Assembly (NCBI GenBank): GCA_036337155.1
Contig: JAYZET010000010.1
Coordinates: 85,630-149,629, forward strand
Direction: 5' to 3'
Length of the DNA: 64,000 nucleotides
Origin: Pseudomonadota bacterium
Lineage (GTDB): Bacteria > Pseudomonadota > Alphaproteobacteria > UBA8366
Below the pieces are notes generated by a model. That model did not search any database, was not told the DNA's origin, and saw only the letters and a program-made list of their open reading frames with translations. Shown here in pieces: positions 27,662-57,909 of this stretch; the stretch's first letter is position 1, and each line of letters opens with the position of its first letter. The translations under genes were made by a program, and so were the position numbers.

Positions 27662-27677
27662 TGCATCCGGCGTGCCA
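27662..27677 (-). promoter_or_regulatory. sigma-54 promoter of the fliK-flgD-flgE hook operon
   Basis: The minus strand reads TGGCAC-GCCGG-ATGCA, against the consensus TGGCAC-N5-TTGCA. Confidence 0.65.
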
Positions 27678-28870: not shown

Positions 28871-28977
28871 CATTACTTCCGTGCTACCGGTTTGCGGCGT
28901 GTTAATTCGGTGGGTAACGGAGGAATGGACCGAATTTTGCTCACATGCGGTTATGCAGTCAATGCCGGAGAATTGCC

Positions 28978-29808
28978 GTGTTCTATAAGACGCAAGTCGA
29001 GCGTTATCGCGAAATGGGCTTCGCTGTTTTGAAGAACGCATTTGAGCCAACTTTAGTTGAGAGTGTTTTCAACGAAGTTTGTGATGTGTTTCGTCCAATC
29101 TTAAAGTATCATGGCATCGTCTCGCCTGAAATTATCGGGGATGAATTTGAAGACGCTTTAGCAAAACTTTTCTGCCAAGACATGTCGGCATATTTGTCAA
29201 CGGCAAAGGCAGTTCAATTGACGCCTGGCCTCCATGCTCTTGGTGCTCATCCCACAATGATAAATCTGGTAAGATCCTTTGGGATTGCGCAACCGCTGAT
29301 TGCTGTTCGGCCCGTTGTTCATATTTTGTCGGATAAACTTCGTGTTAATCAAGGATATCACCGCACCCCTCCACATCAGGACTGGCGCAGCGTTCAGGGC
29401 AGCCTGGATTCTTTGGTCGTTTGGTTGCCATTAGTTTCAATCAATCGCGGCTTCGGTGCAATGGAGGTCATTCCGGGTAGCCATCTCGAAGGTTTGCTCG
29501 AGACTAGGCGTGATCCTTTTGGTAACGTAATTGATGCCTCATTAATCGATGGCAAACGTTTCGTGCCAGTTGAAGTGGACCCGGGCGATGCGATAGTATT
29601 TTCGATGTTTACTGTTCATCGCACGGGTACCGAACAACGTTCGGGTATTCGCTGGGCAGCAAGTTTTCGATATAACAATGCTGCCGCTCCAGATTATGTC
29701 TCTCACGGCTATCCCGATCCCTTTATCTATAAGTCGCAGGACGAATTATTAATTGACGGGTTTCCTACTTTAGAAGAGGTACGCGCCACTTTTTTAAAGC
29801 TGGACTAG
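28978..29808 (+). CDS. PhyH-family Fe(II)/2-oxoglutarate dioxygenase
   Basis: HQDW (H-x-D) and a distal TVHRT His, with the overall phytanoyl-CoA dioxygenase pattern. I prefer the GTG at 28978 (GGAG 8 nt upstream) over the track ATG at 28945. Confidence 0.65.
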   Translation: MFYKTQVERYREMGFAVLKNAFEPTLVESVFNEVCDVFRPILKYHGIVSPEIIGDEFEDALAKLFCQDMSAYLSTAKAVQLTPGLHALGAHPTMINLVRSFGIAQPLIAVRPVVHILSDKLRVNQGYHRTPPHQDWRSVQGSLDSLVVWLPLVSINRGFGAMEVIPGSHLEGLLETRRDPFGNVIDASLIDGKRFVPVEVDPGDAIVFSMFTVHRTGTEQRSGIRWAASFRYNNAAAPDYVSHGYPDPFIYKSQDELLIDGFPTLEEVRATFLKLD

Positions 29809-30539
29809 CAACCCATCTTGCGTGCAAGGTCGACGAAATCCAAAGCGATAATATCCCAGTCTTCTGTCGGTTCCAGGTCCGTTGTTTGCTCGGAGCCGTA
29901 TTCTTCGGGTCGCGCCACAAATGCAGTTTTAAGTCCACGAGCCCTAGCCGCAGCCAGATCGTCATTGTGTGCAGCGGTCATCATGACTTCAGATGGGATT
30001 AAGCCGAGCGCATCGCAACACCGGTCGTAGGTCTCCGGCATGGGTTTGTATTGGCGGACGACTTCTGCGCCAAGAATCACATCCCAAGGCAAGCCGCCGT
30101 GCTTTGCCATGTTAACTATAAGCGCGATATTTCCATTAGAATGGGTGCCTATGACATATCGGGATTTCAGCAGCGTCAACCCTTCTACTGAATCGGGCCA
30201 CGGGTCGAGGCGGTGCCAAAAGAGATTTAGATCGTCGAGTGCTTCTTTAGGAAGTTCGCCGAAACCATAGCGCGGTGCAATTTCTGCGAGATTCCTACGA
30301 TGTAGTACGTCAAGCTTAGTGAATGACATTTCACCGGTCCGGACCCGCTCCATTGAAGGTTGATAGAGGTTTCGCCAATCACGCGCGAAGCGGTCCCAAT
30401 CCGTGTCTGGCACGTTGTGTTGATGCGCAAATTCTCGTGTGAGACGGGCGATGCTGCCGCGCCAGTCGACGACAGTTCCGAAGACATCGAAAATTAAGGC
30501 TTTTATCTCCGTCGTCACACCATTCACTCCAAAGTACAA
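29805..30539 (-). CDS. HAD-superfamily hydrolase, haloacid dehalogenase type II-like
   Basis: 244 aa. N-terminal LIFDVFGTVVDW (DxxGT nucleophile motif) and a length typical of type II dehalogenase-like HADs. Confidence 0.7.
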   Translation of the reverse strand: MYFGVNGVTTEIKALIFDVFGTVVDWRGSIARLTREFAHQHNVPDTDWDRFARDWRNLYQPSMERVRTGEMSFTKLDVLHRRNLAEIAPRYGFGELPKEALDDLNLFWHRLDPWPDSVEGLTLLKSRYVIGTHSNGNIALIVNMAKHGGLPWDVILGAEVVRQYKPMPETYDRCCDALGLIPSEVMMTAAHNDDLAAARARGLKTAFVARPEEYGSEQTTDLEPTEDWDIIALDFVDLARKMGC

Positions 30540-30956
30540 GATTTTCGGAACCTATAGCGCAGTGGGTAAGCGCACACCAGAGCGCGGTACTTTGGGTTTG
30601 ATTAGGTGAATTTTTAAGCTTTTCGATCTGATATGCATTACGCAATCCCCGTTACATACGAAAGTTACCGTATGATCCGTCGTCATTTTGCCTGTCGAAA
30701 TGGTCGACAACTCGTCCAGAGTGATTAAAGAGAACTTAGATGCTGGTGGCTGGCTAAATCCGCAAAGATTTATTGCATGTAGCGTAGGACAGAGGATTTG
30801 GCAGTTTCAAGACCTGGTTCCAGATAGACCCTTCCTACGTAAGGCATACGAAAACCAGGCACGAGTGAACTCAATGAAAACTGATAATACCGCATCGTAA
30901 AATCGAAAATTTCCAAATTTCTGAAACGCTATAAATACAGATTGTTAGCTTTTAAT

Positions 30957-31865
30957 TTACTCAAGAATAGCGAGTCCGATACCACTGGCCCCGTATCCGT
31001 TACCATTGTAGAGCATGTAACGTCGTCCGCTATGATTGAAGACATGCGGATAGCAGATCATCTCGCTATCCCAGCCGTCTTCAGATGAGGCAATTCCTAC
31101 TCTAGCGTCTTGCCGGATCCATTGGATAGCATTTTCTGACTCTGCATAACCAATGCGATAGGGGAAGTCGCTGCCCCGATAGCAGAACCACATCCGCCAT
31201 AGGTCTCCGTCACGGACCACTGTTGGGCGGGCGATTGCAATTTCGTTGGGATGTACAAACCCTATAGCAACCAGTCCGTGCCGCTGCCAGATAATCCCGT
31301 CCTCGCTCAAAGCATAACGTAAATTGTAAGTTGAGTTGGGAGGGTTGCCCTCCAACCAATCGAGGCCGGATAGATACCAAATGTGCCAGCTCGCGCCGTC
31401 AATCGCGACGTCATGGCTCGCCATAAAATAAGGATCGGTGGGCCCGCGATCCAGCACGGGGCCGTCAAAGAGGCGCTCGAATGGCCCGTCGGGCGTGTGG
31501 CGGATTGCTACCCCGATGGCGTTGCGGAACGGTACACCAACCGCGCGATTCCAGCCAATGTAGTAAAGCCGGCTTTCGTTCCCTAGGTGGACCAGGGCAC
31601 TCGCCATGACGCCATCCACATCGAAAGCGCCAAGCTTCCCGGGTGCAAGGATAGGCTCCTCTGATTCGTCGAGTAGCTGAGCAGGGTCATTCAGGTCAAT
31701 CTCACACCAGCCGACATGAGAGCGGTTGTCTGAGTCTCGGGTAGTAAAATAGATGCGAAATCGGTCTTCCTTGACGTGCTCGGCGATCGGTACTGACGCG
31801 TGACTTCGGGCCCACGACCGTTTGCCGTTTGGCGCAAATATTCGACCGAGTTTTCGCCAATTCAT
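30957..31865 (-). CDS. beta-propeller glycoside-hydrolase-like protein (GH43/32/130-type fold, family uncertain)
   Basis: 302 aa. Repeated W/Y-rich blade patterns (RIYFTTRDSDNRSHVGWCEIDL, LYYIGWN, WHIWYLSG, WRMWFCY, RYMLYNGNGYG). The start overlaps the upstream NeuD-like gene by 1 nt. Confidence 0.45.
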   Translation of the reverse strand: MNWRKLGRIFAPNGKRSWARSHASVPIAEHVKEDRFRIYFTTRDSDNRSHVGWCEIDLNDPAQLLDESEEPILAPGKLGAFDVDGVMASALVHLGNESRLYYIGWNRAVGVPFRNAIGVAIRHTPDGPFERLFDGPVLDRGPTDPYFMASHDVAIDGASWHIWYLSGLDWLEGNPPNSTYNLRYALSEDGIIWQRHGLVAIGFVHPNEIAIARPTVVRDGDLWRMWFCYRGSDFPYRIGYAESENAIQWIRQDARVGIASSEDGWDSEMICYPHVFNHSGRRYMLYNGNGYGASGIGLAILE

Positions 31866-32527
31866 CAGATATTCCTCAACCGATCACTTGATATTTTGGA
31901 GGGTTTGGTAGCTGCTCCGGGAAAGACGGACTTGTCGGCCGCATCCCGCACCAGTAGTGCCCCGGCGCCGACGACACAGCCTGCACCAAGCGTAATGTTG
32001 TCCCTCAGCGTCGCATTGACCCCAATGAAGCAGTTGTCTCCAATGTTGACTGAACCCGAAATCACAGCATGGCTGGCGATAAAAACGTTGTTGCCGATTT
32101 GGGTGTGGTGGCCAACGTGATTGCCACTCCATAGAGTACAGTTCTCACCGATCGTCACATAAGGCTGGATCGTATTTTGCTCCATTACCATTGTGTTCGC
32201 TCTTGCTTCGTATCCTCGCCAAACCCAAGCCCGAGAAGATGTGTAACTCGCTAGATCAAACCCTTTAGCGCGGGCTTGCGCGACTTTGTTGGTTCGAAGT
32301 TTATTTACCCTTGTATAACCAATAGCCACAAACAGGCTAAAGTCATCTGGGGAATAGCTCTCCTCCAACTCTTCGAATGGTACGACAGGAAGCCCGAGAT
32401 GGGTTTCCCTATCCCGATGTTCATCGTCGACGGTGAAGGCGGATACGTCATAGTCACTGTCTTCGCAGAAGAGATAGTGAGCGACTTCAGCTATCTCGCC
32501 GATGCCAAATATGGCCAAACGTTTCAT
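31865..32527 (-). CDS. NeuD/PglD-family sugar N/O-acetyltransferase (left-handed beta-helix)
   Basis: 220 aa. N-terminal Rossmann-like LAIFGIGEIAEVAHYLF plus C-terminal hexapeptide repeats (IGDNCFIGVNATLRDNITLGAGCVVGAGALL). Confidence 0.75.
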   Translation of the reverse strand: MKRLAIFGIGEIAEVAHYLFCEDSDYDVSAFTVDDEHRDRETHLGLPVVPFEELEESYSPDDFSLFVAIGYTRVNKLRTNKVAQARAKGFDLASYTSSRAWVWRGYEARANTMVMEQNTIQPYVTIGENCTLWSGNHVGHHTQIGNNVFIASHAVISGSVNIGDNCFIGVNATLRDNITLGAGCVVGAGALLVRDAADKSVFPGAATKPSKISSDRLRNI

Positions 32528-33194
32528 GCCTAAAATTTAGCTCCGCAGTCTGATGAGGCAAAGCGCTGACCAAAAAATACATGCAACGAGAATGCCGCCC
32601 GAACGCTTTTTATATGAGTTAACCAGTCACGACAGATCATCGCCATAACAATTATTTTAATTGTCGACAACCTGGCTCAACTCATGGTTTTCCCATGTTT
32701 GTGTGTTGGACCCTTTTGGCCTCTCATCCAAAGACCGACACTATTGTCTTTCTTTGGTTGACTGGGTGAAAATTACGCAATTAACGGTTATAGCCTCCAC
32801 ACCAATATTTCAGACCGTAAGTAAAAGGGTTAATTTTTATTAAAATACATCACAAATTATAAGCAACACAGAAATACGTTTAATGATGTTGTGCAACCAC
32901 AAGTTTGTTCTCAAAAGGCGCAGTCTTGCTCTACGATTAACGTATGCGACGTAGTAGTCATTATGCAGTAGAAAGACGAAATTGCGTTTGTTTTCAAAGG
33001 TGAAAAGCAGGCCATGCCAGGTTGAGCAAAATTTTGTCTTATTGCCTCCGAGTTTGAGTTGTGGTTGTCCTTTCAACCTGCCGCCTGAGGCTCGTATGTA
33101 TGTTGAATCGAGAATGTTATATCCTTTTGCCCTGAGTGGATTGCGCATAGGATGAATTTTTAGTCGGATAAAAAACAAATGATTAAAAGACGTC

Positions 33195-35339
33195 GTGCCG
33201 ATGCAACTTCGGCTGTATTTTCACCGATTGACGACCTGTGACGCAATTGGGCCTATCCATATGATGGACGATATTGGCGCGTTAGAAAAAGCGTTGGGGC
33301 TACACCAAGCAGGTGACTACGCAGCAGCTGAAACTTTACTTCGCGATTTATTGAAGGTATCCCCTGAAAATAAAGACGGTATGCATCTTCTTGGATTATG
33401 CTGCCATGCGCTTTCACGTAACGAAGAGGCGCTGTCCTGGATCGAGAAAGCTATAGCGCAGGCGCCATCTGAGGCCATTTTTCTCGGCAATGCTGGAATT
33501 GTTGCGCTGGCCCTTGGTAAAACAGAGATAGCTGAGGGTCATCTTGAGCTGGCGATTTCCATAAATCCCCTTCAATCGGAACCATACAATAACCTTGCTT
33601 TGGTTCGTCAACGACAGGGTCGTTTGCAGGAAGCGGAATTTATATTAGACAAGGCAATCGCGCTCGACCCCGGATCTGAGAAAGCCTATTCAAATCGTGG
33701 TAATATCCGAAGAGCCGCTGGCGATGTCGATGGAGCGGTAGCAGACTACCACACAGCAATTAAAATCGCTCCGGAATTGGCGGCCGCCTACAATGGCCTC
33801 GGCAATGCCTTGCGCGATAGAGAACAGCGAGATGATGCAATTGCTGCATTTGATAAGGCGCTCGCACTCGATCCGTCTTATGCGGAAGCCTATTTTAACC
33901 GGGGTCTCACGCGTGCCGTGCAAGGAGAGATTCTTGGCGCAGATGAAGATCTTTGCACGGCGTTGGGCCTCCGCGATGATCCGAGATTTCGAATCGCACG
34001 AGCTGGATTGCTACCAGTTATTCCAGCGTCAATTGAGCAAATTGAGGATTGGCGTCGTCGCTTCGCCGAGAGATTTGCCGCCTTAGACGATATTGGAATA
34101 TTTGTCGATGGCGACCCATCACAGGTCTCGCCGATGAGTTTCTACCTTGCCTATCATGGCAAAAATGACCGGAAGCTTATGGAGAGTGTGGCTGAATTTT
34201 TTCGATCGCGGTTTCCCAATTTGGATTACGTCGCAGATTATTGCGGCAGTCCGGAAGGATCGAAGGGCCGCCCAATTCGGCTCGGTGTCGCCTCTCGTTA
34301 CCTCGGCGAGCACGCGGTGGCCCTGATGATTCACGGCTTACTTTCTGAATTGCCGCGCGACCGTTTCCACGTTACAGCCGTTACTTTTGGCGGCTCTGTA
34401 ACTGAGACTTCTTTCCGCATCCGAGAGGCGGTGGATGCCATAATCGTTTCACCGGCCGATATTCGACAGGCTCGCGAGATCATCGGCGCTCAAAAGTTTG
34501 ATATTTTATTGTACTCAGATATCGGAATGGAGCCTCTCAGCTATTTTCTTGCGTTTTCGCGGCTGGCCCCGGTGCAATGTGCGACCTGGGGTCATCCGGA
34601 TACGACGGGATTACAAACCATTGATTACTACATCAGCAACGATCTTGCAGAGCCGGAGAACGGCCAGGAAAGCTATACAGAAAAACTGGTTCGCCTTGAT
34701 GGCGTGCAGAGCCGCTATTTACGAATGACGAAACCCGATCCATTGCCGAGCCGCCATTCATTGGGACTTCCGAAAGAGGGGACTATCTATCTTTGTCCTC
34801 AAAATATCATCAAAATACATCCCGAAATGGACGCATCTCTCGCCGAAATCCTGCGAAGGGACCCATCCGGTCAGCTTATCGTATTCGATGGCGTTGATCA
34901 AAATTGGACGAGGCTCTTAATAGATCGTTGGCAATCGATCCTTGACGAAGATGCGATGTCGCGGGTGACGGTCCTTTCGCGAGGGACGCTGGAAGTGTTT
35001 CTTGGCGTAATCGCCTCGGCTGATGTTGTACTTGACACTTGGCCGTTTGGCGCTGGGAACACGAACTATCAGACCTTTTCGATGGGCGTACCAGTCGTAA
35101 CATTTCCCGGTAGTTGGATCAGAGGGCGAGGAACACTTGCGCATTATCGGCACATGGATATCGAAGGCTGCATTGCCACTACGCCGGATGAGTATGTCGA
35201 AATCGCCGTTCGCCTCGGTAACGACACCGCGTTTCGATCCCGAATAGCTGATTTGATAGAAGCGCGATCGGGCGCTGTTCTGGAAGACGACATCTGCGTT
35301 AAATCCCTGACCGAGTTTTTGGAACGGGTTGCGCCGTGA
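33195..35339 (+). CDS. TPR-repeat protein fused to SPY/OGT-like (GT41-type) glycosyltransferase, copy 1
   Basis: 714 aa. About 7 TPR units in the N-half. The C-half has LLYSDIGMEPLSYFLAFSRLAPVQCATWGHPDTTG, LGLPKEGTIYLCPQ and LDTWPFGAGNTNYQTFSMGVPVVT, as in COG3914-type O-GlcNAc-transferase homologues. The start is uncertain (alternative ATG at 33261). Confidence 0.8.
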   Translation: MPMQLRLYFHRLTTCDAIGPIHMMDDIGALEKALGLHQAGDYAAAETLLRDLLKVSPENKDGMHLLGLCCHALSRNEEALSWIEKAIAQAPSEAIFLGNAGIVALALGKTEIAEGHLELAISINPLQSEPYNNLALVRQRQGRLQEAEFILDKAIALDPGSEKAYSNRGNIRRAAGDVDGAVADYHTAIKIAPELAAAYNGLGNALRDREQRDDAIAAFDKALALDPSYAEAYFNRGLTRAVQGEILGADEDLCTALGLRDDPRFRIARAGLLPVIPASIEQIEDWRRRFAERFAALDDIGIFVDGDPSQVSPMSFYLAYHGKNDRKLMESVAEFFRSRFPNLDYVADYCGSPEGSKGRPIRLGVASRYLGEHAVALMIHGLLSELPRDRFHVTAVTFGGSVTETSFRIREAVDAIIVSPADIRQAREIIGAQKFDILLYSDIGMEPLSYFLAFSRLAPVQCATWGHPDTTGLQTIDYYISNDLAEPENGQESYTEKLVRLDGVQSRYLRMTKPDPLPSRHSLGLPKEGTIYLCPQNIIKIHPEMDASLAEILRRDPSGQLIVFDGVDQNWTRLLIDRWQSILDEDAMSRVTVLSRGTLEVFLGVIASADVVLDTWPFGAGNTNYQTFSMGVPVVTFPGSWIRGRGTLAHYRHMDIEGCIATTPDEYVEIAVRLGNDTAFRSRIADLIEARSGAVLEDDICVKSLTEFLERVAP

Positions 35340-37513
35340 CGAGCAGTGGTGATCCATTGGATGATGCGCGGAGCCTCATTGAGCAGGGTGAGTTAACTGA
35401 GGTGGACGCTGTGCTGGGCGATCTTATCGAATACAGCTATGAGGCGGCCATGTTGGCAGGTGTTGCCGCAAATAGGGCTGGAGATTTATCGACTGCAATT
35501 AAACGTTTTCGCCGTGCGGCGGAAATTGAACCAGGCCGTTTTGAGGCAACCTTGAATCTTGGGCTTACCTATAGAGCCATGGAAAACGATACAGCGGCTG
35601 AGACGGCTCTTCGGCGGGCTCTTGATCTTTCTCCCGGTTTGGTGGCGGCCAATTTCGCCTTGGGTAATTTACTGATGCAGGGCGGGTTATTAGAGGATGC
35701 TGTTCACAGGTTCACTGCAGTTGAGGTGTCCCAGCCGCACCACATAGGAGCGTTAAACAATCTTGGTATCTGTTACGGCCGGCTCGGTAAATTGGACGAT
35801 GCGGCCACAAATTTCGAGAGCGTTTTGGAATTTGAGCCTGAGCATGTCGGTGCGCTCGCAAATCTTGGTGCTATTCGATCTGAACAGGGTCGTAGTGAAG
35901 AGGCAATCAATCTTCTTAAGCGTGTTCTCACATTGGAACCCGAACAAGTCGAGGCTACTAATAACCTTGGTGTAGCCTTGATGGATAAAGGTCGTTACGG
36001 TGAAGCGGCGGAGCTGTTACGTTTGCTGACTGAAAACAATAGAGCGGGTGCCGAAGCTTTTAGTAATCTAGGTAATGCCTTGGCGAAGCTTGGTGAGACT
36101 GCACGCGCCGACGAAGCCTATCAGCAGGCATTTTTGCTAAAACCTGATCCAGGAATTCGTGTCAAACGAGCGATGCTTCTGCCGATTGTTAGCGCATCAA
36201 CGGAAGTAATGGACGCCGCGCGATCAGAATTCGAACGACGGGTCGATGCTTTGATTGCCGATCCGCCCCAGCTCGACGATCCGTTTTCTGAAGTCGGTGT
36301 AACGACCTTCGCGCTTTCCTATCAAAATTATTTGAATCGGACTTTAATGGAGAAAGTAGCGAGGATGTATCGGGGGATCTGTCCCGCCTTAACCTATACT
36401 GCTGCGCATTGCGGCAAGATTGGACAGGGAAATGATCTTCCCGTGCGAATTGGTTTCGTGTCTCGCTTTTTTCAAAACCATTCGGTGGGGCGCTGTTTCC
36501 ACGGCATTCCCCGCTTCCATGGGCGTGATGACATAGAGATAACGGTCTTTACCTTTACGACGGAACCCGACCCTTTATGGCGGCAGATCGAAAAAGATGT
36601 CGACAAGACGGTTGTGCTGCCCGCGCATTTCGGATCAGCTCGAAATCAAATTGCGTCTGAAGAAATTGATATCCTTGTATATACAGACATCGGAATGGAC
36701 CCGCTGACGTATTTTCTCACGTTCTGCAGACTAGCTCCGTTGCAATGTGTGCTCAGCGGTCATCCAGATTCAGTCGGGGTCGATACAATCGACGCATATA
36801 TTAGCTGCGATATGCAGGAACCACCTGATGCGGAGGAGCACTATTTGGCTCCACTGGTTCGACTGCCAGGATCACCGACGTATTATGAGCGGCCAAAATT
36901 ACCGGAGCCGATGAAACCGCGAGGAGCATTTGGCCTACCAAATGATGCACCAATTTATTTTTGTGGTCAGACATTGATAAAAATACATCCAGATATGGAC
37001 GCACTCTTTCGCGGCATTCTAGAGCTAGACCCCGATGGTGAGCTTGTTTTCCCTGAAGGTTATACTCCGGAACTCGCAGATTTGCTATCCAACCGGTTCC
37101 GCGAGACCCTTGGCTCGCTTGCTGCGCGTGTCAAGTTTCTACCAGCGATGAGCCATACAGACTATATGAACGTTTTGGCTTTTTCTAATGTAGCACTGGA
37201 TACTCGGCCATTCGGTGGTGGTAACACAAGTTGGCAAGCTATTGCTGTTGGGACGCCAATGGTGACCTGGCCCGGCCATTACTTGCGAGGTAGATATACT
37301 CAGGCGCTTTATCGGCTGATCGGCGTGGAGGATGCTATTGCAAACTCAGCAGAGGACTACATTGCCCGTGCCGTTAAATTTGCCACCGACCGGGCCTTTA
37401 CGGTCGAATTCAATGACCGTGTTCGCGATCGTGCAGACCGAATTTTTTGCGATCGCAGACATGTGGATGCCCTCTATAGCTATTTGCTTGATCGCTTCAG
37501 CTCTGTGCTCTGA
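35336..37513 (+). CDS. TPR-repeat protein fused to SPY/OGT-like (GT41-type) glycosyltransferase, copy 2
   Basis: 725 aa. Its GTG overlaps the upstream stop (GTGA). It has the same C-terminal motifs: LVYTDIGMDPLTYFLTFCRLAPLQCVLSGHPDSVG, FGLPNDAPIYFCGQ and LDTRPFGGGNTSWQAIAVGTPMVT. Confidence 0.8.
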   Translation: MTSSGDPLDDARSLIEQGELTEVDAVLGDLIEYSYEAAMLAGVAANRAGDLSTAIKRFRRAAEIEPGRFEATLNLGLTYRAMENDTAAETALRRALDLSPGLVAANFALGNLLMQGGLLEDAVHRFTAVEVSQPHHIGALNNLGICYGRLGKLDDAATNFESVLEFEPEHVGALANLGAIRSEQGRSEEAINLLKRVLTLEPEQVEATNNLGVALMDKGRYGEAAELLRLLTENNRAGAEAFSNLGNALAKLGETARADEAYQQAFLLKPDPGIRVKRAMLLPIVSASTEVMDAARSEFERRVDALIADPPQLDDPFSEVGVTTFALSYQNYLNRTLMEKVARMYRGICPALTYTAAHCGKIGQGNDLPVRIGFVSRFFQNHSVGRCFHGIPRFHGRDDIEITVFTFTTEPDPLWRQIEKDVDKTVVLPAHFGSARNQIASEEIDILVYTDIGMDPLTYFLTFCRLAPLQCVLSGHPDSVGVDTIDAYISCDMQEPPDAEEHYLAPLVRLPGSPTYYERPKLPEPMKPRGAFGLPNDAPIYFCGQTLIKIHPDMDALFRGILELDPDGELVFPEGYTPELADLLSNRFRETLGSLAARVKFLPAMSHTDYMNVLAFSNVALDTRPFGGGNTSWQAIAVGTPMVTWPGHYLRGRYTQALYRLIGVEDAIANSAEDYIARAVKFATDRAFTVEFNDRVRDRADRIFCDRRHVDALYSYLLDRFSSVL

Positions 37514-38147
37514 GCTGGGCCGCTACATCGGTGGCGGGTTCCGTCAATAGCCGGTAAAGGATGCTCCAATTCGAGCCTCTCCACGGCTCAAAAAGTTTTA
37601 ATTCCACACCTTGTCGCGCAAAATACTGGCTATCGTAAAGTCGCCGACCACCAGCTAAATTGATATAACGGTCAGCACTGAGCTTTCGACAGATTTCCAG
37701 CACGCGGTCTTGGCCACGGAAGGCATTTGGAATTTGTAGCGTCGTCGAGCGTATGACCTTGAAGGGTAAACGCAGCTCCCGACAGGCAATTGATAAGAGG
37801 TTTTCTAAATACCCGACGACATCGCCGGAGGGCACAAGCATTGCGTCGAGTAGAGGATGTCTGGCACCTCGCAATATGGGAAAGTTACGGCAGCGGGTTT
37901 CCATCGACCCAATAGCATTTTCCGTAAACCCTAATTCCGAGATTCGTATATTGGTGGGTTCCTTCTTAAGCGGTAAGGTTAACCAGCGTGGTTGTCTGGC
38001 GACCCCGGGAAGCTGGTTGCGATGAACCCATCCGCGTCTTGGAAACTGCACGCAATCGAAGATGCATACTAAATCAGCTTCCGCAAACAATCGAAAATAC
38101 CCAGCATAGGGAATAAAATAGGGTTGCATAACCGCGATTGTGGTCAT
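37497..38147 (-). CDS. WbqC-family protein
   Basis: 216 aa. The N-terminal IAVMQPYFIPYAGYFRLF motif is characteristic of WbqC-like proteins from sugar-modification loci. Confidence 0.75.
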   Translation of the reverse strand: MTTIAVMQPYFIPYAGYFRLFAEADLVCIFDCVQFPRRGWVHRNQLPGVARQPRWLTLPLKKEPTNIRISELGFTENAIGSMETRCRNFPILRGARHPLLDAMLVPSGDVVGYLENLLSIACRELRLPFKVIRSTTLQIPNAFRGQDRVLEICRKLSADRYINLAGGRRLYDSQYFARQGVELKLFEPWRGSNWSILYRLLTEPATDVAAQLRAQS

Positions 38148-38262
38148 TCGGACCTCGGCTGGAAGGCGATCATGGTATTAGTCTAGTATCGAAATTAGAA
38201 TCGTCCCAGCTATAGTATTCTGCAGTTGACGATATGACGTGGTCAATGAAATCTAATGAACG

Positions 38263-40032
38263 ATGGCAGATTCAATAGAAGCGACCTTGCAAGAAGCGCT
38301 GGAATGTTTTTATGCGGGCGACCATGCACTCGCTGCTATACTTTTTCGCCAAATATTGGATAGAGATCCTGACCACGCCGAAGCGCTTCATCTCCTTGGC
38401 CTCGCAGAACAGGGTATGGGAGAGACTGGAGCTGCTCTGCTGCATATTGCGAAAGCCGTAGGCAGTTCACCCCGTGACGTTTTATATCGTATGAATTTAG
38501 GAACCATGCTTTTTGAAGCTGGACGGCCAAGCGATGCTGTATCGATACTGCGAGGCGCGGTTGAATGCGATCCTAACCTATGGGAAGCGCATTATGTTTT
38601 GGGAAATGCATTGGTGGCATCGGGTGACGACCACGCGGCGTTGAAATCCTTTTTTCGATCCGTGACTTTAAACCCGGGGCACGCAGAAACTTTCAATAAC
38701 ATAGGGTTGATCCTCCGGGAACAGGACAAATTGGAGGAAGCCGTTGTCTATCTCGAGAAAGCGGTTCGGATACCCACGCCGTTTCCCCCAGCATTTTCCA
38801 ATCTTTGCGCAGCTTATGTGGAGCTAGGCCGTCTTGAGGAAGCACTGTCAGCAGGTCACGAGGCGGTCTCGTTGGCGCCGAACGATGCGAGCGCTCACTA
38901 CAATTTAGCAAATGCCATGGTGGCTGCGGATAATCCCGAAGGCTCGTTGTCTGGCTACCAAGAAGCGGTTTCCCTTGACCCTTGTTATGCGGACGCTTGG
39001 ATCAATCTCGGCGCAGCGCTATTGGCATGCGACGAGCCAGGGGAGGCGATAGTAGCTTTCGATCGGGCGGTGTGCCTCGATAAATACTCAGCCGACGCTA
39101 ATTGGAACCGCGCCTTGGCTCTTCTTAAGCATGGTCGTTTGACTGAAGGATGGCCGGGCTATGAATGGCGATGGGAGGCGGTCCCTTGGCTCAATAGGTG
39201 GCAATTAGAAGTTCCTCAGTGGCGGGGTGAAGAGGTGGACGGCAAAGTCATCCTAGTTCACGCCGAGCAAGGGTATGGCGATACCATCCAATTCGTTCGC
39301 TATCTTCCGGATATTCTGCGTCGGGGAGGCAAGGTCCGTCTCGTCTGCCAACCGGCGCTCAAACGATTGCTATCATTCCTGCCAGATTTGGAAAGCGTTA
39401 CCGCTCACGGTGAAATTCCCGGTCCTTTCGACTTGCATCTGCCGATTATGAGCCTGCCGGAAGCAGTTGGCCTTGCAAATCCAGCGAGCGGTTCAGATAA
39501 AATTCCATATATTTCAGCAGAAATTGGTGCACCACCTGAACTGGCGTCGGTACAGCTACCAAAGGTTGGTCTCGTATGGCGAGGCAGCCAAATTAACACG
39601 GAGGGTAAGTTCCGATCATGTCGGTTCTGCGATCTTGAACCAATTCTGTTGGTGCCACACGCAAGGTATTTCGCATTGCAGCCCGATATCGAAGAAGAAG
39701 AACGTAGCCTGCTAATTCACCTCGGGGGAGTCGATTTATCGTCGCGCATTCAGGATTTCGGTGATAGCGCGGCTATCACTGATGCGATGGATTTGGTAAT
39801 TTCTGTCGACACCGCACAAGCTCATTTAACGGGTGCGCTCGGCAAGCCAATATGGACCTTACTTGCTCGTGGCGCCGACTGGCGATGGTTTCTTGATCGA
39901 GATGATAGTCCTTGGTATCCCACGATGCGGTTATTTCGCCAACTGGAGCGAGGCAACTGGCAGCAACCAATTGCACAAGCTGCTCTGGCATTACCGAAAT
40001 TCCTTCTCGGAATCGCAAATCAAGCGAAATGA
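38263..40032 (+). CDS. TPR-repeat protein fused to GT9-like (heptosyltransferase-fold) glycosyltransferase, copy 1
   Basis: 589 aa. TPR N-half; the C-half has ILVHAEQGYGDTIQFVRYLP, DTAQAHLTGALGKPIWTLL and DSPWYPTMRLFRQ. Confidence 0.75.
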   Translation: MADSIEATLQEALECFYAGDHALAAILFRQILDRDPDHAEALHLLGLAEQGMGETGAALLHIAKAVGSSPRDVLYRMNLGTMLFEAGRPSDAVSILRGAVECDPNLWEAHYVLGNALVASGDDHAALKSFFRSVTLNPGHAETFNNIGLILREQDKLEEAVVYLEKAVRIPTPFPPAFSNLCAAYVELGRLEEALSAGHEAVSLAPNDASAHYNLANAMVAADNPEGSLSGYQEAVSLDPCYADAWINLGAALLACDEPGEAIVAFDRAVCLDKYSADANWNRALALLKHGRLTEGWPGYEWRWEAVPWLNRWQLEVPQWRGEEVDGKVILVHAEQGYGDTIQFVRYLPDILRRGGKVRLVCQPALKRLLSFLPDLESVTAHGEIPGPFDLHLPIMSLPEAVGLANPASGSDKIPYISAEIGAPPELASVQLPKVGLVWRGSQINTEGKFRSCRFCDLEPILLVPHARYFALQPDIEEEERSLLIHLGGVDLSSRIQDFGDSAAITDAMDLVISVDTAQAHLTGALGKPIWTLLARGADWRWFLDRDDSPWYPTMRLFRQLERGNWQQPIAQAALALPKFLLGIANQAK

Positions 40033-40082
40033 CAAGAAAAAGGCGGTCGGTTAGGCTGATCGTCTTGGGAAATAAAGACCAA

Positions 40083-41189
40083 ATGATCAAGAATACAACC
40101 GCAATCCCTTTGATGAAGCCTCGCCTACCTGATCGAAAGGCGCTGGAACCTTATCTCGCTGAAATTGACCAAAACCGTTGGTACAGTAATTTCGGCCCTT
40201 TGGAACGTCGGTTCGAGGCACGCCTGGCTGATTATTTTGGTGTCAGGGATCAGCAAATAATTTGCGTTTCCAGCGGCACGCAGGCGCTCAGCATTTCTCT
40301 GAAGTCAGTTGCCCGATCGACTGTTGGATATTGTTTGATGCCGTCCTTTACTTTTGTTGCTACTCCGCACGCGGCTGTTGCGGCTGGTCTCGAGCCTTAC
40401 TTTCTTGATGTGGATCTAAATACTTGGGCGCTCGATCCTAATGCGGTTAAATCTATTTTGCCGGCATTTGAAGGGCCGATTGCTGCGATCCTACCCGTTG
40501 CACCGTTCGGTGCATCTTTCGATATTGAAGCATGGGATGATTTCCACCGTGAGACAGGTATTCCAGTAGTTGTGGATGCAGCTGCCGGCTTTGACTCTGC
40601 ACGGCCAGGAATGTCACCAGTTATGGTTAGTTTGCATGCTACGAAAGCCCTAGGTATAGGAGAAGGTGGATTGGTTTTATGTCGGGATAATCGGATCGCT
40701 GCTAAAATTAGAGGTGGGCGAAATTTCGGTTTCATGGGAGGCCGGATTGCTACAATTCCAGGAAGTAATGCAAAGCTAAGTGAATATGGAGCTGCGGTGG
40801 GCCTTGCTTCTCTCGATGCATGGCCTGAAACCAGAGCTCAGTTACTTAGAATTGCGGCAAGCTTTCTAGATGTATTTGAAGGAATTGATAGCCTTACATT
40901 TTCGCCGGGATTTACGGTCGACCACGCGGTGACAACTTGCAATGTGGCATTTAAGGAGCCGATAGCGTCAATTGTCATTGATGAGCTTGCTCAAGCGGGT
41001 ATAGATGCTCGCCGATGGTGGAACCACGGCTGTCATAAAGAACCCATATTTAGCGGATGCGGTAAAAGTAATTTAGATGTAACAGAATATCTCTCCGAGC
41101 GTGTGGTTGGTTTGCCTTATTTTATTGATCTCGATTTGCCACAAATGCAAAAAATTCGGGACTGTGTAATCCGAGCGGTGGCTCGGTAA
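40083..41189 (+). CDS. DegT/DnrJ/EryC1/StrS-family PLP-dependent sugar aminotransferase
   Basis: IPLMKPRLP near the N-terminus and the PLP-lysine block SLHATKALGIGEGG. An alternative coupled start is the ATG at 40029 (ATGA with the upstream stop). Confidence 0.85.
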   Translation: MIKNTTAIPLMKPRLPDRKALEPYLAEIDQNRWYSNFGPLERRFEARLADYFGVRDQQIICVSSGTQALSISLKSVARSTVGYCLMPSFTFVATPHAAVAAGLEPYFLDVDLNTWALDPNAVKSILPAFEGPIAAILPVAPFGASFDIEAWDDFHRETGIPVVVDAAAGFDSARPGMSPVMVSLHATKALGIGEGGLVLCRDNRIAAKIRGGRNFGFMGGRIATIPGSNAKLSEYGAAVGLASLDAWPETRAQLLRIAASFLDVFEGIDSLTFSPGFTVDHAVTTCNVAFKEPIASIVIDELAQAGIDARRWWNHGCHKEPIFSGCGKSNLDVTEYLSERVVGLPYFIDLDLPQMQKIRDCVIRAVAR

Positions 41190-41203
41190 GAGTTGCCCGA
41201 TTT

Positions 41204-41216
41204 GGTAAATGTTACC
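41204..41216. promoter_or_regulatory. variant dyad GGTAAATGTTACC nested in inverted repeat TTGCCCG(41193..41199)/CGGGCAA(41216..41222)
   Basis: A perfect palindrome with a symmetric C-to-T / G-to-A change relative to GGCA-N5-TGCC. Its centre is 93 bp upstream of the flagellin-1 promoter. Confidence 0.3.
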
Positions 41217-41302
41217 GGGCAATTAATGTATCTATGGCGCAGTTCCGAATTCACCGATTAAAAATATTAAATAAAATCAATATGTTAAAATAATTAATGC
41301 GC

Positions 41303-41318
41303 TGGCATCGCGGTTGCC
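41303..41318 (+). promoter_or_regulatory. sigma-54 promoter of flagellin gene 1
   Basis: TGGCAT-CGCGG-TTGCC. This implies a leader of about 95 nt. Confidence 0.65.
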
Positions 41319-41425
41319 ATTCTAATTACTGACTTTTCGTTTCCGCTTAAGAATACGCTTAAAAGACGTTTTCGAGGAACGGAGCGAAGCCAAGGAGCCA
41401 AGGGAGCCAGAAAGGAGTTGGCAAA

Positions 41426-42265
41426 ATGGCAGGATTTGGATCTGATAAGATCGCTTTGTCGGCAGCAGTACGAGGAAATCTGCTTTCTCTTCAAAGAACG
41501 TCGACCTCAATCGAAACGACGCAGCAGCGTTTGGCCACCGGCCTCAAGGTAAATTCGGCAATTGACGACGCGGCTGCATTCTTTACAGCCCGAGCACTTG
41601 ATAACCGAGCTTCAGATCTTGAGAGCCTCAAAAGCAATATCGATATCTCGATAAGCACGCTCCAAGCGGCGCTCGATGGCATCGACGCTATTACTGACCT
41701 CGTGCAGCAAGCAAAAGGCCTTGCGAGTAATGCTAAGGCTACAGGTGATACGAATGAACGTTCGACCCTGGCAGTTCAGTTCAATGAGTTACTGGGTCAA
41801 ATCAATTCAATTGCCAACGATTCAACCTTCAATGGTATGAACTTGTTAAAAGCGACACCGGATAACCTCCAGGTTGCATTTAATGAGGACAATACTTCCA
41901 ATATTACAATTACTGGTCTCGATACCACGACTGCTACGTCGGGCATCAATCTTGGAGTTGCTGCCAATAATTTTGGCCTTACCGCCAATATTGACACAGC
42001 GTTGACCGCAATTAGTAGCGCTCTGGTTACACTGCGTGGTAATGCATCGACCCTAGGTTCGAACAGCACGGTTCTTAAGACCCGTCTTAACTTCACTGAA
42101 AACTTGGTTAACACTCTCGAAGGTGGATCAGGCAAGCTCACTTTAGCCGATTTAAATGAGGAAAGCGCTAACCTACTTGCTTTACAGACACGTCAGCAAC
42201 TTGGCTTAAACTCACTTGCATTAGCCTCGCAGAGCGAGAGAGCGATCTTGAGCCTCTTTGGATAA
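41426..42265 (+). CDS. flagellin (short, about 28 kDa alphaproteobacterial type), copy 1
   Basis: 279 aa. Conserved N-terminus LQRTS..TQQRLATGLKVNSAIDDAAAFF and C-terminus LLALQTRQQLGLNSLALASQSE. The central region is Thr/Ser/Asn-rich. Confidence 0.9.
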   Translation: MAGFGSDKIALSAAVRGNLLSLQRTSTSIETTQQRLATGLKVNSAIDDAAAFFTARALDNRASDLESLKSNIDISISTLQAALDGIDAITDLVQQAKGLASNAKATGDTNERSTLAVQFNELLGQINSIANDSTFNGMNLLKATPDNLQVAFNEDNTSNITITGLDTTTATSGINLGVAANNFGLTANIDTALTAISSALVTLRGNASTLGSNSTVLKTRLNFTENLVNTLEGGSGKLTLADLNEESANLLALQTRQQLGLNSLALASQSERAILSLFG

Positions 42266-42306
42266 GCCAATCAACTTAGTATTGTAAAAATTTTTGACGC
42301 CGGTCC

Positions 42307-42319
42307 GGCAATAGTTGCC
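42307..42319. promoter_or_regulatory. GGCA-N5-TGCC dyad (candidate UAS for flagellin gene 2), embedded in a longer imperfect hairpin 42291..42335
   Basis: GGCAATAGTTGCC, exact. Its centre is 106 bp upstream of the promoter at 42419. The enclosing hairpin (TTTTTGACGCCG...CGGCGGCAAAAA) could also act as the flagellin-1 terminator. Confidence 0.45.
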
Positions 42320-42418
42320 TGGACGGGCGGCAAAAATTTCCTCTACGGGCAATTTTTTCCTACTTCTTCGTTACATTAGTAGCTACTAAGTATCTCAAAA
42401 ATATAGCGTTTAGGTTGA

Positions 42419-42434
42419 TGGCATGGTCGTTGCT
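42419..42434 (+). promoter_or_regulatory. sigma-54 promoter of flagellin gene 2
   Basis: TGGCAT-GGTCG-TTGCT. This implies a leader of about 100 nt. Confidence 0.65.
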
Positions 42435-42544
42435 GCTTTGGTTAATGGCTCGGCCAAATCAATAGAAATTGATAAGGCCGTAGTTATTAAATAGCGATCG
42501 CAGAAGGCGGTCGTATCCATGTGTCCTAGAAGAGGAGATATCAC

Positions 42545-43372
42545 ATGTCCGACTCTATTAATCTTTCAACATCGGTTCGGACGAACCTACTTACCCTACA
42601 GCGTACCTCTGGTCTTATTGCTGCAACCCAAACCCGTCTTTCGACGGGCTTGAAGGTCAATTCAGCCCTCGACGATGCGGCGGCGTTTTTCACTGCCAAG
42701 GCGTTGAGCAATGCTGCGAGCGACCTTGAAGGGTTGAAGGGAAATATTGATTTAGCGGTTAGTACTATCCAGTCGGCAATCGACGGCATTGACGCGATTA
42801 CTGAATTGGTGAACCAAGCAAAAGGTCTCGCTAGTAATGCGAAGGCAACTGGTGATACAAGCGAGCGTTCGACCCTAGCAGTTCAATTTAATGAGCTGCT
42901 TAAACAGGTCAATGCAATTGCCAACGATTCAACCTTCAATGGTTTGAACTTATTGAAGGCGACACCTGACAACTTGGCAGTTGAATTCAACACCGATAAT
43001 ACCAGTAACCTGACCATTACGGGTCTAGACTCTACAACTGCTACGTCAGGCATTAATATTGCCGTTGCAGCCAATAATTTTGGCCTTACGGCGAATATTG
43101 ACACTGCGTTGACCCAAATTGGCAGCGCATTGACTGAACTTAGGTCAAACGCTTCGACCTTGGGTTCAAATAACACCATCCTCTCCACAAGGTTGGATTT
43201 CACGGAAAGTCTCGTTGCAACGCAGGAAGGCGGAGAAGCGAAACTAACTCTGGCTGATCTTAATGAGGAAAGTGCAAATCTGCTGGCTCTTCAGACCCGG
43301 CAACAGTTAGGTATTAACTCTTTGGCCCTTGCCGCGCAGAGTGAGCGGTCAATTTTGGCGCTTTTTGGTTAA
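42545..43372 (+). CDS. flagellin, copy 2 (paralog of 41426..42265)
   Basis: 275 aa, roughly three-quarters identical to copy 1 by eye, with many synonymous differences at the DNA level. Confidence 0.9.
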   Translation: MSDSINLSTSVRTNLLTLQRTSGLIAATQTRLSTGLKVNSALDDAAAFFTAKALSNAASDLEGLKGNIDLAVSTIQSAIDGIDAITELVNQAKGLASNAKATGDTSERSTLAVQFNELLKQVNAIANDSTFNGLNLLKATPDNLAVEFNTDNTSNLTITGLDSTTATSGINIAVAANNFGLTANIDTALTQIGSALTELRSNASTLGSNNTILSTRLDFTESLVATQEGGEAKLTLADLNEESANLLALQTRQQLGINSLALAAQSERSILALFG

Positions 43373-43398
43373 TATCCCTTGTGGTTCACTGGAACCCA

Positions 43399-43429
43399 AG
43401 CGGGGGCTACGGCCCCCGCTTTTTTTTTA
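43399..43429 (+). terminator. rho-independent terminator after flagellin 2
   Basis: Stem AGCGGGGGC / GCCCCCGCT (loop TACG) followed by a T9 run. Confidence 0.85.
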
Positions 43430-43538
43430 AAAAAATTGTTAAAGATATGCACGATTTTTTAAACACCGTGTAAAAATTATATTAGCTTATCGTCAAGGCT
43501 CGGCGATAGTTTGTATACATTTTATCTAGTGGTATGAA

Positions 43539-43931
43539 ATGCCCTTAAAATTAATTTTGAAACCAGGCGAAAAAGTAATAATCAATCAGGCAGTGGTGTT
43601 GAACGGTGGAGATAAGAGCGAGCTTGTTCTGCAGAATAAAGCGAGTGTCTTACGTGAGCGAGATATAATGACCGAAGATAAAGCAGACACTCCTGCGAAA
43701 AGAATTTATTTCGCTATTCAAATGATGTACATGTTCACAGATAAAGAACGCCACCGCCAAGATAAATTTAATGAGTTAGTGAGCTCTTTCGTAGAAGCCG
43801 TACCAAGTTCAACACCAATTTTACTTGATATTGGTAGGAAAGTTATTGAAGGTAATCTTTACGGCGCAATGAAAGACTGCAAGAAACTAATGCGCTACGA
43901 AGAAGAGGTGTTAAAACATGTCGCCCAGTAG
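43539..43931 (+). CDS. flbT: flagellin translational regulator FlbT
   Basis: 130 aa. The N-terminal MPLKLILKPGEKVIINQAVV..N and ..TPAKRIYFAIQMMY match the FlbT family signature. Confidence 0.85.
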   Translation: MPLKLILKPGEKVIINQAVVLNGGDKSELVLQNKASVLRERDIMTEDKADTPAKRIYFAIQMMYMFTDKERHRQDKFNELVSSFVEAVPSSTPILLDIGRKVIEGNLYGAMKDCKKLMRYEEEVLKHVAQ

Positions 43932-44349: not shown

Positions 44350-44366
44350 TCCAAAAACTAGTTTTC

Positions 44367-49094: not shown

Positions 49095-49107
49095 GGTTCA
49101 CTAACTC

Positions 49108-57893: not shown

Positions 57894-57909
57894 AGCAGGA
57901 TACGTGCCA
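57894..57909 (-). promoter_or_regulatory. sigma-54 promoter of flgF-flgG-flgA-flgH
   Basis: The minus strand reads TGGCAC-GTATC-CTGCT. It lies about 39 nt upstream of the flgF ATG, measured from the predicted start site. Confidence 0.6.

Follow-up and report, generated by a model that had tools for sequence, protein, structure and literature searches.

Two anciently diverged GT41-type glycosyltransferase genes in a candidate flagellin glycosylation island of an alphaproteobacterium

In FlmG, the flagellin glycosyltransferase of Caulobacter crescentus and Brevundimonas subvibrioides, the tetratricopeptide repeat (TPR) part binds flagellin and the GT-B (glycosyltransferase fold B) domain sets the donor specificity (PMC7591256; 10.1101/2022.03.25.485807); this enzyme is reported to be confined to Caulobacterales (10.1101/2023.12.03.569772). 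Genes of glycosyltransferase family 41 (GT41; COG3914, SPINDLY family) were described in silico in enterobacterial flagellin glycosylation islands (De Maayer & Cowan 2016, PMC4875605), and the GT41 protein Ogt of Synechococcus elongatus is needed for pilin glycosylation (10.1101/2021.07.06.449578). No experimentally characterized GT41 flagellin transferase was found in the searchable literature. Here, we analyzed a 64-kb stretch of alphaproteobacterial DNA (contig JAYZET010000010.1, hereafter the window), which carries two adjacent open reading frames (ORFs), A and B, encoding TPR proteins with GT41-type catalytic domains. Further labels are C for the third GT41-type ORF, D and E for two ORFs encoding TPR plus GT9-like proteins (the window's protein records run from MEE2688343 for A to MEE2688353 for E), and L-numbers for the compared loci. 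The reading we favor, with somewhat better than even confidence, is that A and B encode anciently diverged, co-transcribed, and probably coupled cytoplasmic GT41-fold protein O-glycosyltransferases of a flagellin glycosylation island.

The scores of A, B, and C against the Pfam family Glyco_transf_41 (PF13844) are 54.1, 79.0, and 313.3 bits, respectively, all above the cut-off of 25 bits, and Pfam also finds an N-terminal TPR array in each protein. Sequence matches of A and B in PDB are SPINDLY (SPY) and the OGTs of Thermobaculum (TtOGT), Xanthomonas (XcOGT), and human (hOGT); the catalytic halves match TtOGT, XcOGT, and Arabidopsis SPY at E-values from 1e-18 to 1e-22. The AlphaFold2 model of A, built from a 60-sequence alignment, has a mean predicted local distance difference test (pLDDT) score of 93.5 and a predicted template modeling (pTM) score of 0.90. 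Its best Foldseek match in PDB is the full-length Arabidopsis SPY (E ~1e-34, template modeling score 0.60–0.67), followed by human, Drosophila, Thermobaculum, and Xanthomonas OGTs. The predicted structure of A has a TPR superhelix continuous with a two-lobed GT-B domain, and the alignments suggest the same for B and C.

Active-site residues were mapped via HMMER alignments and by a separate alignment onto the published SPY mutagenesis (PMC9715652). The essential diphosphate-binding Lys (SPY K665, hOGT K842) is retained in 25/25 A orthologues and in 22/22 sequences at the B position; its context is IIKIHP in A, LIKIHP in B, and PIKLD in C. The N-Cat His (SPY H495, hOGT H558) is present in all 25 A orthologues, in the window copy of B, and in C. 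At the position of the base stacker (SPY H728, hOGT H901), A has Phe, and B has Tyr in the window and Phe or Tyr in orthologues. The phosphate loop (AGTTTT in SPY, NGHTT in hOGT) is GAGNTN in A, with invariant G[AG]GNT; GGGNTS in B, with invariant GGGNT; and NGHTT in C. Hence, the G[AG]GNT[NS] loop is invariant in the A/B subfamily, conserved but of a different type from the hOGT and SPY loops. The ribose-binding acid (SPY E752, hOGT D925) is replaced by an invariant Gln in both A and B, while the positions of SPY S496, Y744, and T747–T749 are occupied by Ala, Phe, and G-N-T in A and by Ser, Phe, and G-N-T in B. The active-site H, K, N, T, F, and Q are invariant across the 25 A orthologues. 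The catalytic domain is better conserved than the TPR part, both among B orthologues (59% vs. 41%) and among A orthologues (54% vs. 46%). Hallmarks of the subfamily are DIGM[ED]P..Y, QxxxK[IL]HP.[MF]D, and PFGxGNT. By sequence, A and B are intact and belong to a separate subfamily of bacterial GT41 proteins. Their assignment as SPY orthologues was rejected: they have PFG[AG]GNT and not PYAGTTT, Gln in place of the acid, and branch within a bacterial clade. Two further candidate signs were also dropped. The ladder of Asn residues in the TPRs of A and B (34-residue spacing), considered as an OGT-like sign of peptide binding, is the generic TPR consensus Asn; and donor specificity cannot be read from the bulky residue at hOGT C917/SPY Y744, as XcOGT and C also have Tyr there.

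The longest ORF of A opens with a GTG, and the start is most likely the ATG at 33261 or 33264 (691–692 aa) rather than this GTG at 33195, since A orthologues are about 690 aa long and their alignment begins at the MMDD methionines; one database copy of the protein itself has 691 aa. The stop codon of A and the GTG start of B share GTGA at 35336–35339. An overlapping junction is kept in every B-carrying locus (GTGA in ten, ATGA in three, and an 8-nt GTGAC-TGA overlap in two of the first 15 loci, with the same types in ten more loci), which supports both the start of B on the overlap and translational coupling of A and B. The two proteins are 34% identical over 708 aligned residues (E=1e-124), well above chance; C is 23% identical to A (E=8e-19) and 24% identical to B (E=5e-27). 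The first motif reads DIGMEPLSYFLAFSRLAPVQ in A and DIGMDPLTYFLTFCRLAPLQ in B, the second, GLPKEGTIYLCPQNIIKIHPEMD in A and GLPNDAPIYFCGQTLIKIHPDMD in B, and the third, LDTWPFGAGNT in A and LDTRPFGGGNT in B.

The canonical member of the trio is C, which contains LDTHFYNGHTTTSDALWAGLPVVT, matches hOGT at 1.3e-89 and XcOGT at 6e-54, lacks the metazoan intervening domain, and carries the NGHTT loop, the Lys, and the His. The earlier note on this DNA had described A and B as adjacent genes of the same TPR and GT41 layout that share three motifs and a GTGA overlap, with C as the more canonical copy; translations and Pfam bear out the layout and every quoted motif, the conserved overlapping junction backs the proposed coupling, and the match to hOGT and the NGHTT loop agree with the description of C. 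Alignment of all three proteins and a phylogeny of their catalytic domains, as the note had proposed, give pairwise identities of 23–34% and place A and B in separate orthogroups. The loss of catalytic residues in two of the copies, which the note had named as evidence for pseudo-enzymes, is not seen: the Lys, the His, the aromatic residue, and the phosphate loop are there in the window copies of A, B, and C.

The remaining two TPR proteins, D and E, are 32% identical (E=5e-98) and have 8–10 TPRs each. Their C-terminal domain gives a weak, consistent match to GT9, seen in 10/12 homologues with the best E=3.7e-7. A profile search of the D/E-type C-terminal domain against PDB yielded no relative, Foldseek matches with the E model are dominated by the TPR part, and no FlmG-named entries occur among the 120 best E homologues. 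The context of a Paraburkholderia TPR–GT9 homologue (P0205) is not flagellar. The stop codon of D overlaps the possible ATG of the aminotransferase gene as ATGA (40029–40032), and the ATG of C overlaps the stop codon of E, also as ATGA. As E starts 13–34 nt past the flgL stop codon and overlaps C, the E–C pair rides on the flgK–flgL operon. Overlaps of 4 nt are thus a local norm (A–B, D–aminotransferase, E–C).

The flagellar supercluster spans the window from about 10.3 kb to its right end. Its left part contains fliI, fliJ, flhF, flhA, a gene for a sigma54 activator, motA, fliN, fliF, flgE, flgD, fliK, and flaG; its right part contains flgL, flgK, flgN, a flgJ-like gene, flgI, fliX, dksA, flgH, flgA, flgG, flgF, fliM, and motB. 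The glycosyltransferase genes lie in an island at 28945..48112, between flaG/fliK/flgDE and flgLK, together with two flagellin genes, flbT, and flaF. Judged by gene content, this interval is a candidate flagellin glycosylation island, with five TPR-glycosyltransferases from two GT-B families.

Syntenic loci were collected from GTDB genomes and metagenome contigs with 41–68% identity of A. The cassette is syntenic in approximately 25 alphaproteobacterial loci, down to 41% identity, in the order GH130-like/acyltransferase, A–B, WbqC, D–aminotransferase, two flagellins, FlbT, FlaF, (C)–E. The hosts, from marine and other sources, are alphaproteobacterial metagenome-assembled genomes (MAGs) labeled Rhodospirillaceae, Rickettsiales, or Alphaproteobacteria, and the host clade comprises mostly marine, Rhodospirillales-like alphaproteobacteria. 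Always present are A, E (scored where the contig extends to its position), the GH130-like gene, and the genes for the acyltransferase, WbqC, and the aminotransferase. That the cassette keeps its order next to flbT, flaF, and a pair of flagellin genes, all within a flagellar supercluster, supports a link to flagellin, the candidate acceptor. Distant members of the family also stand beside flagellin/flbT/flaF or flgKL genes (L043, L065, L020, L114), including those from a deltaproteobacterial MAG and a Rhodospirillales MAG.

The other three transferases vary. C is restricted to the window and its nearest relatives (L004–L007, L092, L093). D is absent from L004, L005, and L007, and a C-terminal remnant of it remains between the WbqC and aminotransferase genes at L012:13090-13230 and L013:13120-13353, hence D was lost secondarily. 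B is absent in the lineage of L012, L013, L099, and L100. In L093, which has 95% DNA identity to the B-carrying L092, B has a clean internal deletion of 1,792 bp with both gene ends remaining (L093:11041-11416, compared with L092:12079-14265). Where none of B, C, and D is present, as in the L012 lineage, a 374-aa ORF on the minus strand (L012:17709-18833) stands in the place of C, flanked by flaF and E.

Neighbor-joining trees inferred from catalytic domains, with C as the root and 100 bootstraps, recover A orthologues as monophyletic in 90/100 replicates and B orthologues in 100/100, and A together with B in 0/100, with other alphaproteobacterial singletons branching with B. Within the same genome, A and B are 33–45% identical in the catalytic domain and 21–34% in the TPRs. 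According to these trees, A and B are old orthogroups, kept separately; a recent tandem duplication was rejected, as A+B monophyly was never recovered and other members branch between them. At two loci (L001:12073-14355, L102:3807-5978), the gene at the B position is chimeric, with a B-type TPR part and an A-type catalytic part. The TPR part is 49% identical to and colinear with that of B from sister genomes, while the catalytic two-thirds match the neighboring A gene at 86% DNA identity along 1,442 nt. This looks like a natural domain swap by gene conversion between tandem paralogues.

The two flagellins of the island, Fla1 and Fla2, are 79% identical and share the invariant central block ...FN.DNTSN.TITGLD.TTATSG..., with the conserved motif TITGLD[ST]TTATSG. 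Covariation was first analyzed on 14 genomes with 186 variable flagellin columns, split by the presence of a B-type catalytic domain. Two of the 186 columns separate the genomes, with Ser or Thr where the domain is present and Ala or Val where it is absent; of the 28 ways to pair the lineages, the real pair, whose members are not sisters, is alone in yielding any such column. Position 171 (Thr171 of Fla1, codon 41936..41938; Thr167 of Fla2, codon 43043..43045) held up in a retest with newly fetched metagenome loci; it has Ser or Thr in 36/36 flagellins from loci with the B-type domain and Ala in 11/11 from two old lineages lacking it. No flagellin columns covarying with D were seen among the first-set genomes, and covariation with C is confounded by phylogeny. 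The covariation of position 171 with the B catalytic domain is a weak, suggestive signal; nevertheless, no other evidence gathered here bears on the acceptor directly, and a precise prediction follows from it.

These results sharpen what the earlier note had proposed, a flagellin-linked trio of subfunctionalized tandem paralogues. The link to flagellin holds across the syntenic loci, and the three GT41 genes are there, while the set was incomplete, D and E having been missed. Adjacency and homology of A and B stand, and their origin by recent duplication does not. Subfunctionalization would fit the pattern of presence and absence and the weak site covariation.

Under the favored reading, the N-terminal TPR superhelix would capture freshly made flagellin in the cytoplasm; in the GT-B domain, the invariant Lys, the aromatic base stacker, and the GNT phosphate loop would bind a nucleotide sugar; and the sugar would be placed on Ser/Thr hydroxyls of the central flagellin segment (...NTSN.TITGLD.TTATSG...) prior to FlaF-dependent export. 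The donor would be made by the island itself, with the DesI/VioA-like aminotransferase, the NeuD/PglB/VioB-type N-acyltransferase, the WbqC and GH130-like proteins, and the PhyH dioxygenase. From the aminotransferase, the N-acyltransferase, and the tailoring genes, we infer that an N-acylated amino-deoxyhexose is the most likely donor, more so than GlcNAc or a nonulosonic acid. The core of the system would be A together with E, while B, C, and D would be accessory, adding further sites or sugars; in particular, B may serve the Ser/Thr at flagellin position 171. A much bolder version, which we regard as speculative and improbable, is a site-partitioned "glyco-code", in which up to five TPR-guided transferases each have their own Ser/Thr on the 275-aa flagellin, that of B being Ser/Thr171, and the GT41 members use an N-acylated amino-deoxyhexose. 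To our knowledge, this donor class is not known for GT41. On this version, the loss of the 171 hydroxyl along with the domain swap in L001 and L102 would mean that the catalytic domain, and not the TPR alone, fixes the site.

Several observations weigh against the role of A and B in flagellin glycosylation. The context is flagellar in 15/80 best genome loci, and most members of the subfamily are non-flagellar, which excludes flagellin as a general family substrate. The position of the N-Cat His is Asn in 17/20 authentic B orthologues, and SPY H495A and H495F are dead enzymes (PMC9715652), so catalysis may be altered in the B orthogroup. The deletion in L093 and the absence of B in the L012 lineage make B dispensable in some natural populations, unless the L093 contig is misassembled. 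The flagellins of L093 are nearly those of L092, one copy differing at two residues (TTGSDG/TTASTG), and Ser171 is kept despite the recent loss of B. Two independent lineages underlie the covariation, which was noticed post hoc; the initially noted covariation of position 191 with B was withdrawn, as it failed on the new metagenome loci (exceptions: L098_1, L110_1, and L110_2 from B-carrying loci, and L102_2, without the B-type domain). Neither a 4,6-dehydratase nor a nucleotidyltransferase gene is present in the window, so the donor pathway is incomplete there; and no sigma54-like site occurs upstream of A–B within two mismatches.

Several transferases acting on the same flagellin could also work in succession, one attaching the first sugar to Ser/Thr and the others extending the glycan. 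Five transferases for only two flagellins of 79% identity, several sugar-tailoring genes in the island, and the modular way in which B, C, and D are gained or lost, like optional extension steps, would all fit. We nevertheless consider successive action unlikely, since each of the five enzymes has its own long TPR array, normally needless for chain extension, and the loss of the B-type domain coincides with the loss of one flagellin hydroxyl, as expected for direct attachment. Alternatively, A and B could form an obligate heteromer with stoichiometry set by translational coupling, A being the catalytic subunit and B an impaired partner that presents the acceptor or the donor. An analogy is provided by the GtfA/GtfB pair of streptococcal serine-rich-repeat glycosylation. 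The overlapping A/B junction of all B-carrying loci, the TPR-mediated dimers of OGT and SPY (PDB titles), the Asn of most authentic B orthologues at the His whose mutation kills SPY, and the asymmetry of loss, A never being absent while B can be, are in line with such a complex. Against this, B invariantly keeps the Lys, the GNT loop, the Gln, and the aromatic stacker, its catalytic domain is its best-conserved part (59%), and the His is present in the window copy; overlaps of 4 nt are frequent in operons and also join D to the aminotransferase gene and E to C; A occurs without B in the L012 lineage; and the replacement of the B catalytic domain by an A-type one in L001 and L102 would be odd for a dedicated non-catalytic partner. 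On balance, the heteromer seems distinctly unlikely.

The two remaining explanations detach the GT41 genes from flagellin. The paralogues might act on non-flagellin flagellar or cytoplasmic proteins, or regulate flagellar genes like the bifunctional GmaR of Listeria, leaving D and E as the true flagellin transferases. D and E do share the FlmG architecture, E being a core gene in the flgKL operon, most of the GT41 subfamily is non-flagellar, often in multi-copy arrays (Planctomycetota, Nitrospirota, Desulfobacterota), and GmaR is described as a flagellar TPR-glycosyltransferase with a regulatory role (PMC9638930). This explanation leaves aside that A is as invariant as E, with sugar-modification genes on both flanks in every locus, that the covariation at position 171 concerns flagellin itself, and that A/B-like genes stand next to flagellin genes independently in distant taxa; we give it little credence. 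Incidental adjacency, with a common, mobile GT41 array landing in a flagellar cluster, could draw on the frequency of tandem arrays and multi-domain fusions (up to eight ORFs per 22 kb in L062; two to six domains in single proteins such as P0257 and P0268). It is close to refuted by synteny, gene order and overlapping junctions being kept in about 25 loci at 41–68% identity, and the guanine–cytosine (GC) content is not aberrant; accordingly, it is by far the least probable.

Table 1. Coordinates of the glycosyltransferase genes and other features of the island in the window.
Feature	Coordinates	Strand	Length	Remarks
PhyH-like dioxygenase	28945..29808	+		Left edge of the island; PhyH present in most syntenic loci
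HAD hydrolase	29805..30539	-		Left edge of the island
GH130-like protein	30957..31865	-	302 aa	beta-1,2-mannoside phosphorylase/synthase-like; core island member
Sugar N-acyltransferase	31865..32527	-		NeuD/PglB/VioB family; divergent from A; TIGR03570, 174.6 bits (cut-off 160.8)
A	33195..35339 (longest ORF); 33261..35339 (likely gene span)	+	714 codons from first GTG	~7 TPR repeats and GT41-fold glycosyltransferase, bacterial SPY-like subfamily
B	35336..37513	+	725 aa	TPR (~8 repeats) and GT41-fold paralogue; GTG start
WbqC-family protein	37497..38147	-		Pfam PF08889, 1.3e-31; in all syntenic loci
D	38263..40032	+	589 aa	TPR and GT9-like GT-B protein; FlmG-like architecture
DegT/DesI-like sugar aminotransferase	40029..41189	+		Pfam DegT_DnrJ_EryC1, 8e-58
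Flagellin 1 (Fla1)	41426..42265	+		Pfam Flagellin_N/C
Flagellin 2 (Fla2)	42545..43372	+		Pfam Flagellin_N/C
flbT	43539..43931	+		Flagellin translation regulator; Pfam FlbT, 6e-41
flaF	43918..44349	+		Secretion chaperone; Pfam FlaF, 4e-31
C	44367..46196	-	609 aa	Short-TPR canonical OGT-type GT41
E	46193..48112	-	639 aa	TPR (~10 repeats) and GT9-like GT-B protein
flgL and flgK	48126..51219	-		Immediately upstream of E–C, same strand

Among the neighboring genes (Table 1), the GH130-like protein has distant PDB matches to the GH130 beta-1,2-mannoside phosphorylases 7fip (4e-08) and 9fj8 (1.5e-07) and a partial NCBIfam match; the Pfam scan gave no match for it, and its similarity to mannoside synthases is marginal and non-significant (E ~0.2). 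It may be a further enzyme of sugar transfer or processing. The Pfam domains of the N-acyltransferase are Hexapep and PglD_N. The WbqC family is annotated as O-antigen-associated; a literature search on its function gave nothing useful. The best NCBIfam match of the aminotransferase is dTDP-4-dehydro-6-deoxyglucose aminotransferase, below the cut-off of that family. The Pfam scan of ORFs in the 64-kb window revealed no genes of nonulosonic acid pathways (NeuB/PseI/LegI etc.). The gap between the acyltransferase gene and A (733 bp, 32528..33260) stands out by its length and its AT-richness (GC 0.41); a 112-aa ORF within it (32840..33178, minus strand) has no support. The corresponding gap is only 59 bp long in many relatives but reaches 623 bp in L003 and 2.9 kb in L006, and the gaps compared between loci have no sequence similarity.

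Each flagellin gene is preceded, at a distance of about 110 nt, by a match to the sigma54-type -24/-12 promoter, at 41303..41318 (TGGCATCGCGGTTGCC) and 42419..42434 (TGGCATGGTCGTTGCT) on the plus strand; similar sites are seen upstream of fliK (27662..27677, minus strand) and flgF (57894..57909, minus strand). Window-wide, the number of sigma54-like sites (38 observed vs. 31.8 expected) is not above chance. Outside the island, the first ~10 kb of the window carry unrelated metabolic and molybdenum cofactor genes, a 516-aa ORF without a Pfam match (12449..13999, minus strand) lies between fliJ and flhF, and a gene for a DUF6468 protein (59848..60333, plus strand) stands beside fliM.

The A/B subfamily is large. 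With the catalytic half of A as query, phmmer matched 30,115 of 1.84 billion cluster representatives at E<=1e-3, 20,189 at E<=1e-10, and 4,553 at E<=1e-30. In a motif-seeded scan that took one genome from each species, 348 loci came up in Alphaproteobacteria, Planctomycetota, Nitrospirota, Desulfobacterota, and others. Arrays of two to eight GT41-like ORFs occur in eight non-flagellar loci, with up to eight ORFs per 22 kb in L062; non-flagellar arrays of four to eight TPR–GT41 ORFs in about 22 kb were noted in a Rhodospirillaceae MAG (L062) and in Gemmataceae MAGs (L044, L046). Many proteins of the subfamily have two to six copies of the catalytic domain per chain, and the giant proteins P0257 (2762 aa), P0268 (3732 aa), P0291, and P0330 have four to six GT41-type domains each. 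Tandem multiplicity is a habit of the family, not special to the window.

Bacterial GT41 proteins are very numerous, and our searches turned up natural substrates for only a few. The family assignment of A, B, and C is ordinary, and both GT41 genes in flagellin islands and the TPR/GT-B logic were already known; it is the context that is useful. The island pairs an uncharacterized GT41 subfamily with a small, soluble candidate acceptor, flagellin, and with a candidate donor pathway, which makes the role of a bacterial OGT/SPY protein directly testable and offers a tractable system for substrate assignment. A, B, and C are plausibly flagellin O-glycosyltransferases, and natural variants provide ready controls, with B deleted, the catalytic domain of B swapped, or C or D present or absent. 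If confirmed, the FlmG principle, with the TPR picking flagellin and the GT-B domain picking the sugar, would extend to a second and a third GT-B family outside Caulobacterales, and new parts would become available for cytoplasmic O-glycoengineering; if not, the result is a routine annotation of a glycosylation island.

Among GT41 proteins, the HMW1C/ApNGT enzymes (PDB 3Q3E, 8J30) are the more remote, with weak matches to the C-terminal lobe (~1e-9 to 1e-10); unlike A and B, they have no TPR array, a different N-terminal domain, and an N-linked activity, the glucosylation of adhesins. Arabidopsis SPY (PDB 7Y4I, 8DTF–8DTI), an O-fucosyltransferase of GT41 and the best full-length match of the A model, shares with A and B the essential Lys, the N-Cat His, the aromatic base stacker, and a bulky aromatic residue at Y744. 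It differs by sequence (20–22% identity), by AGTTTT instead of G[AG]GNT, by Glu752 instead of Gln, and, for A, by Ser496 instead of Ala; SPY uses GDP-fucose, and the use of this donor by A and B is unsupported. Human OGT, XcOGT (2JLB), and TtOGT (5DJS) belong to GT41 like A, B, and C. The matches of A and B to TtOGT and XcOGT are at ~1e-21, with a divergent phosphate loop, and the metazoan intervening domain is lacking in A and B as it is in C. XcOGT was crystallized with UDP-GlcNAc analogues. We know of no natural substrates of XcOGT and TtOGT, so these enzymes give no functional guidance.

Closer in biological role is the Ogt of S. elongatus, a bacterial GT41 acting, as is proposed here, on the subunit of a surface filament; unlike A and B, it is a single gene without a set of paralogues, and its acceptor is a type IV pilin. 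Pseudomonas FgtA (PA1091), considered as a GT41 comparator, was dropped, as it belongs to GT2 according to the literature (PMC11833859). The enterobacterial islands resemble that of the window in having GT41 genes between flagellar genes, together with genes of sugar biosynthesis and acyl- or methyl-tailoring; they contain mostly methyltransferase fusions and one glycosyltransferase family each, whereas GT41 and GT9-like genes occur together here. FlmG, a transferase of pseudaminic or legionaminic acid (Pse/Leg) to flagellin with a length of 596 aa, is similar to D (589 aa) and E (639 aa) in both size and layout. It uses CMP-nonulosonic acids, while the 64-kb window has no NeuB/Pse/Leg genes, although the pathway could lie elsewhere in the genome. 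By comparison of layouts, the general FlmG-type plan, a soluble protein of TPR and GT-B parts encoded with flagellar genes, is shared by all five proteins, A, B, C, D, and E.

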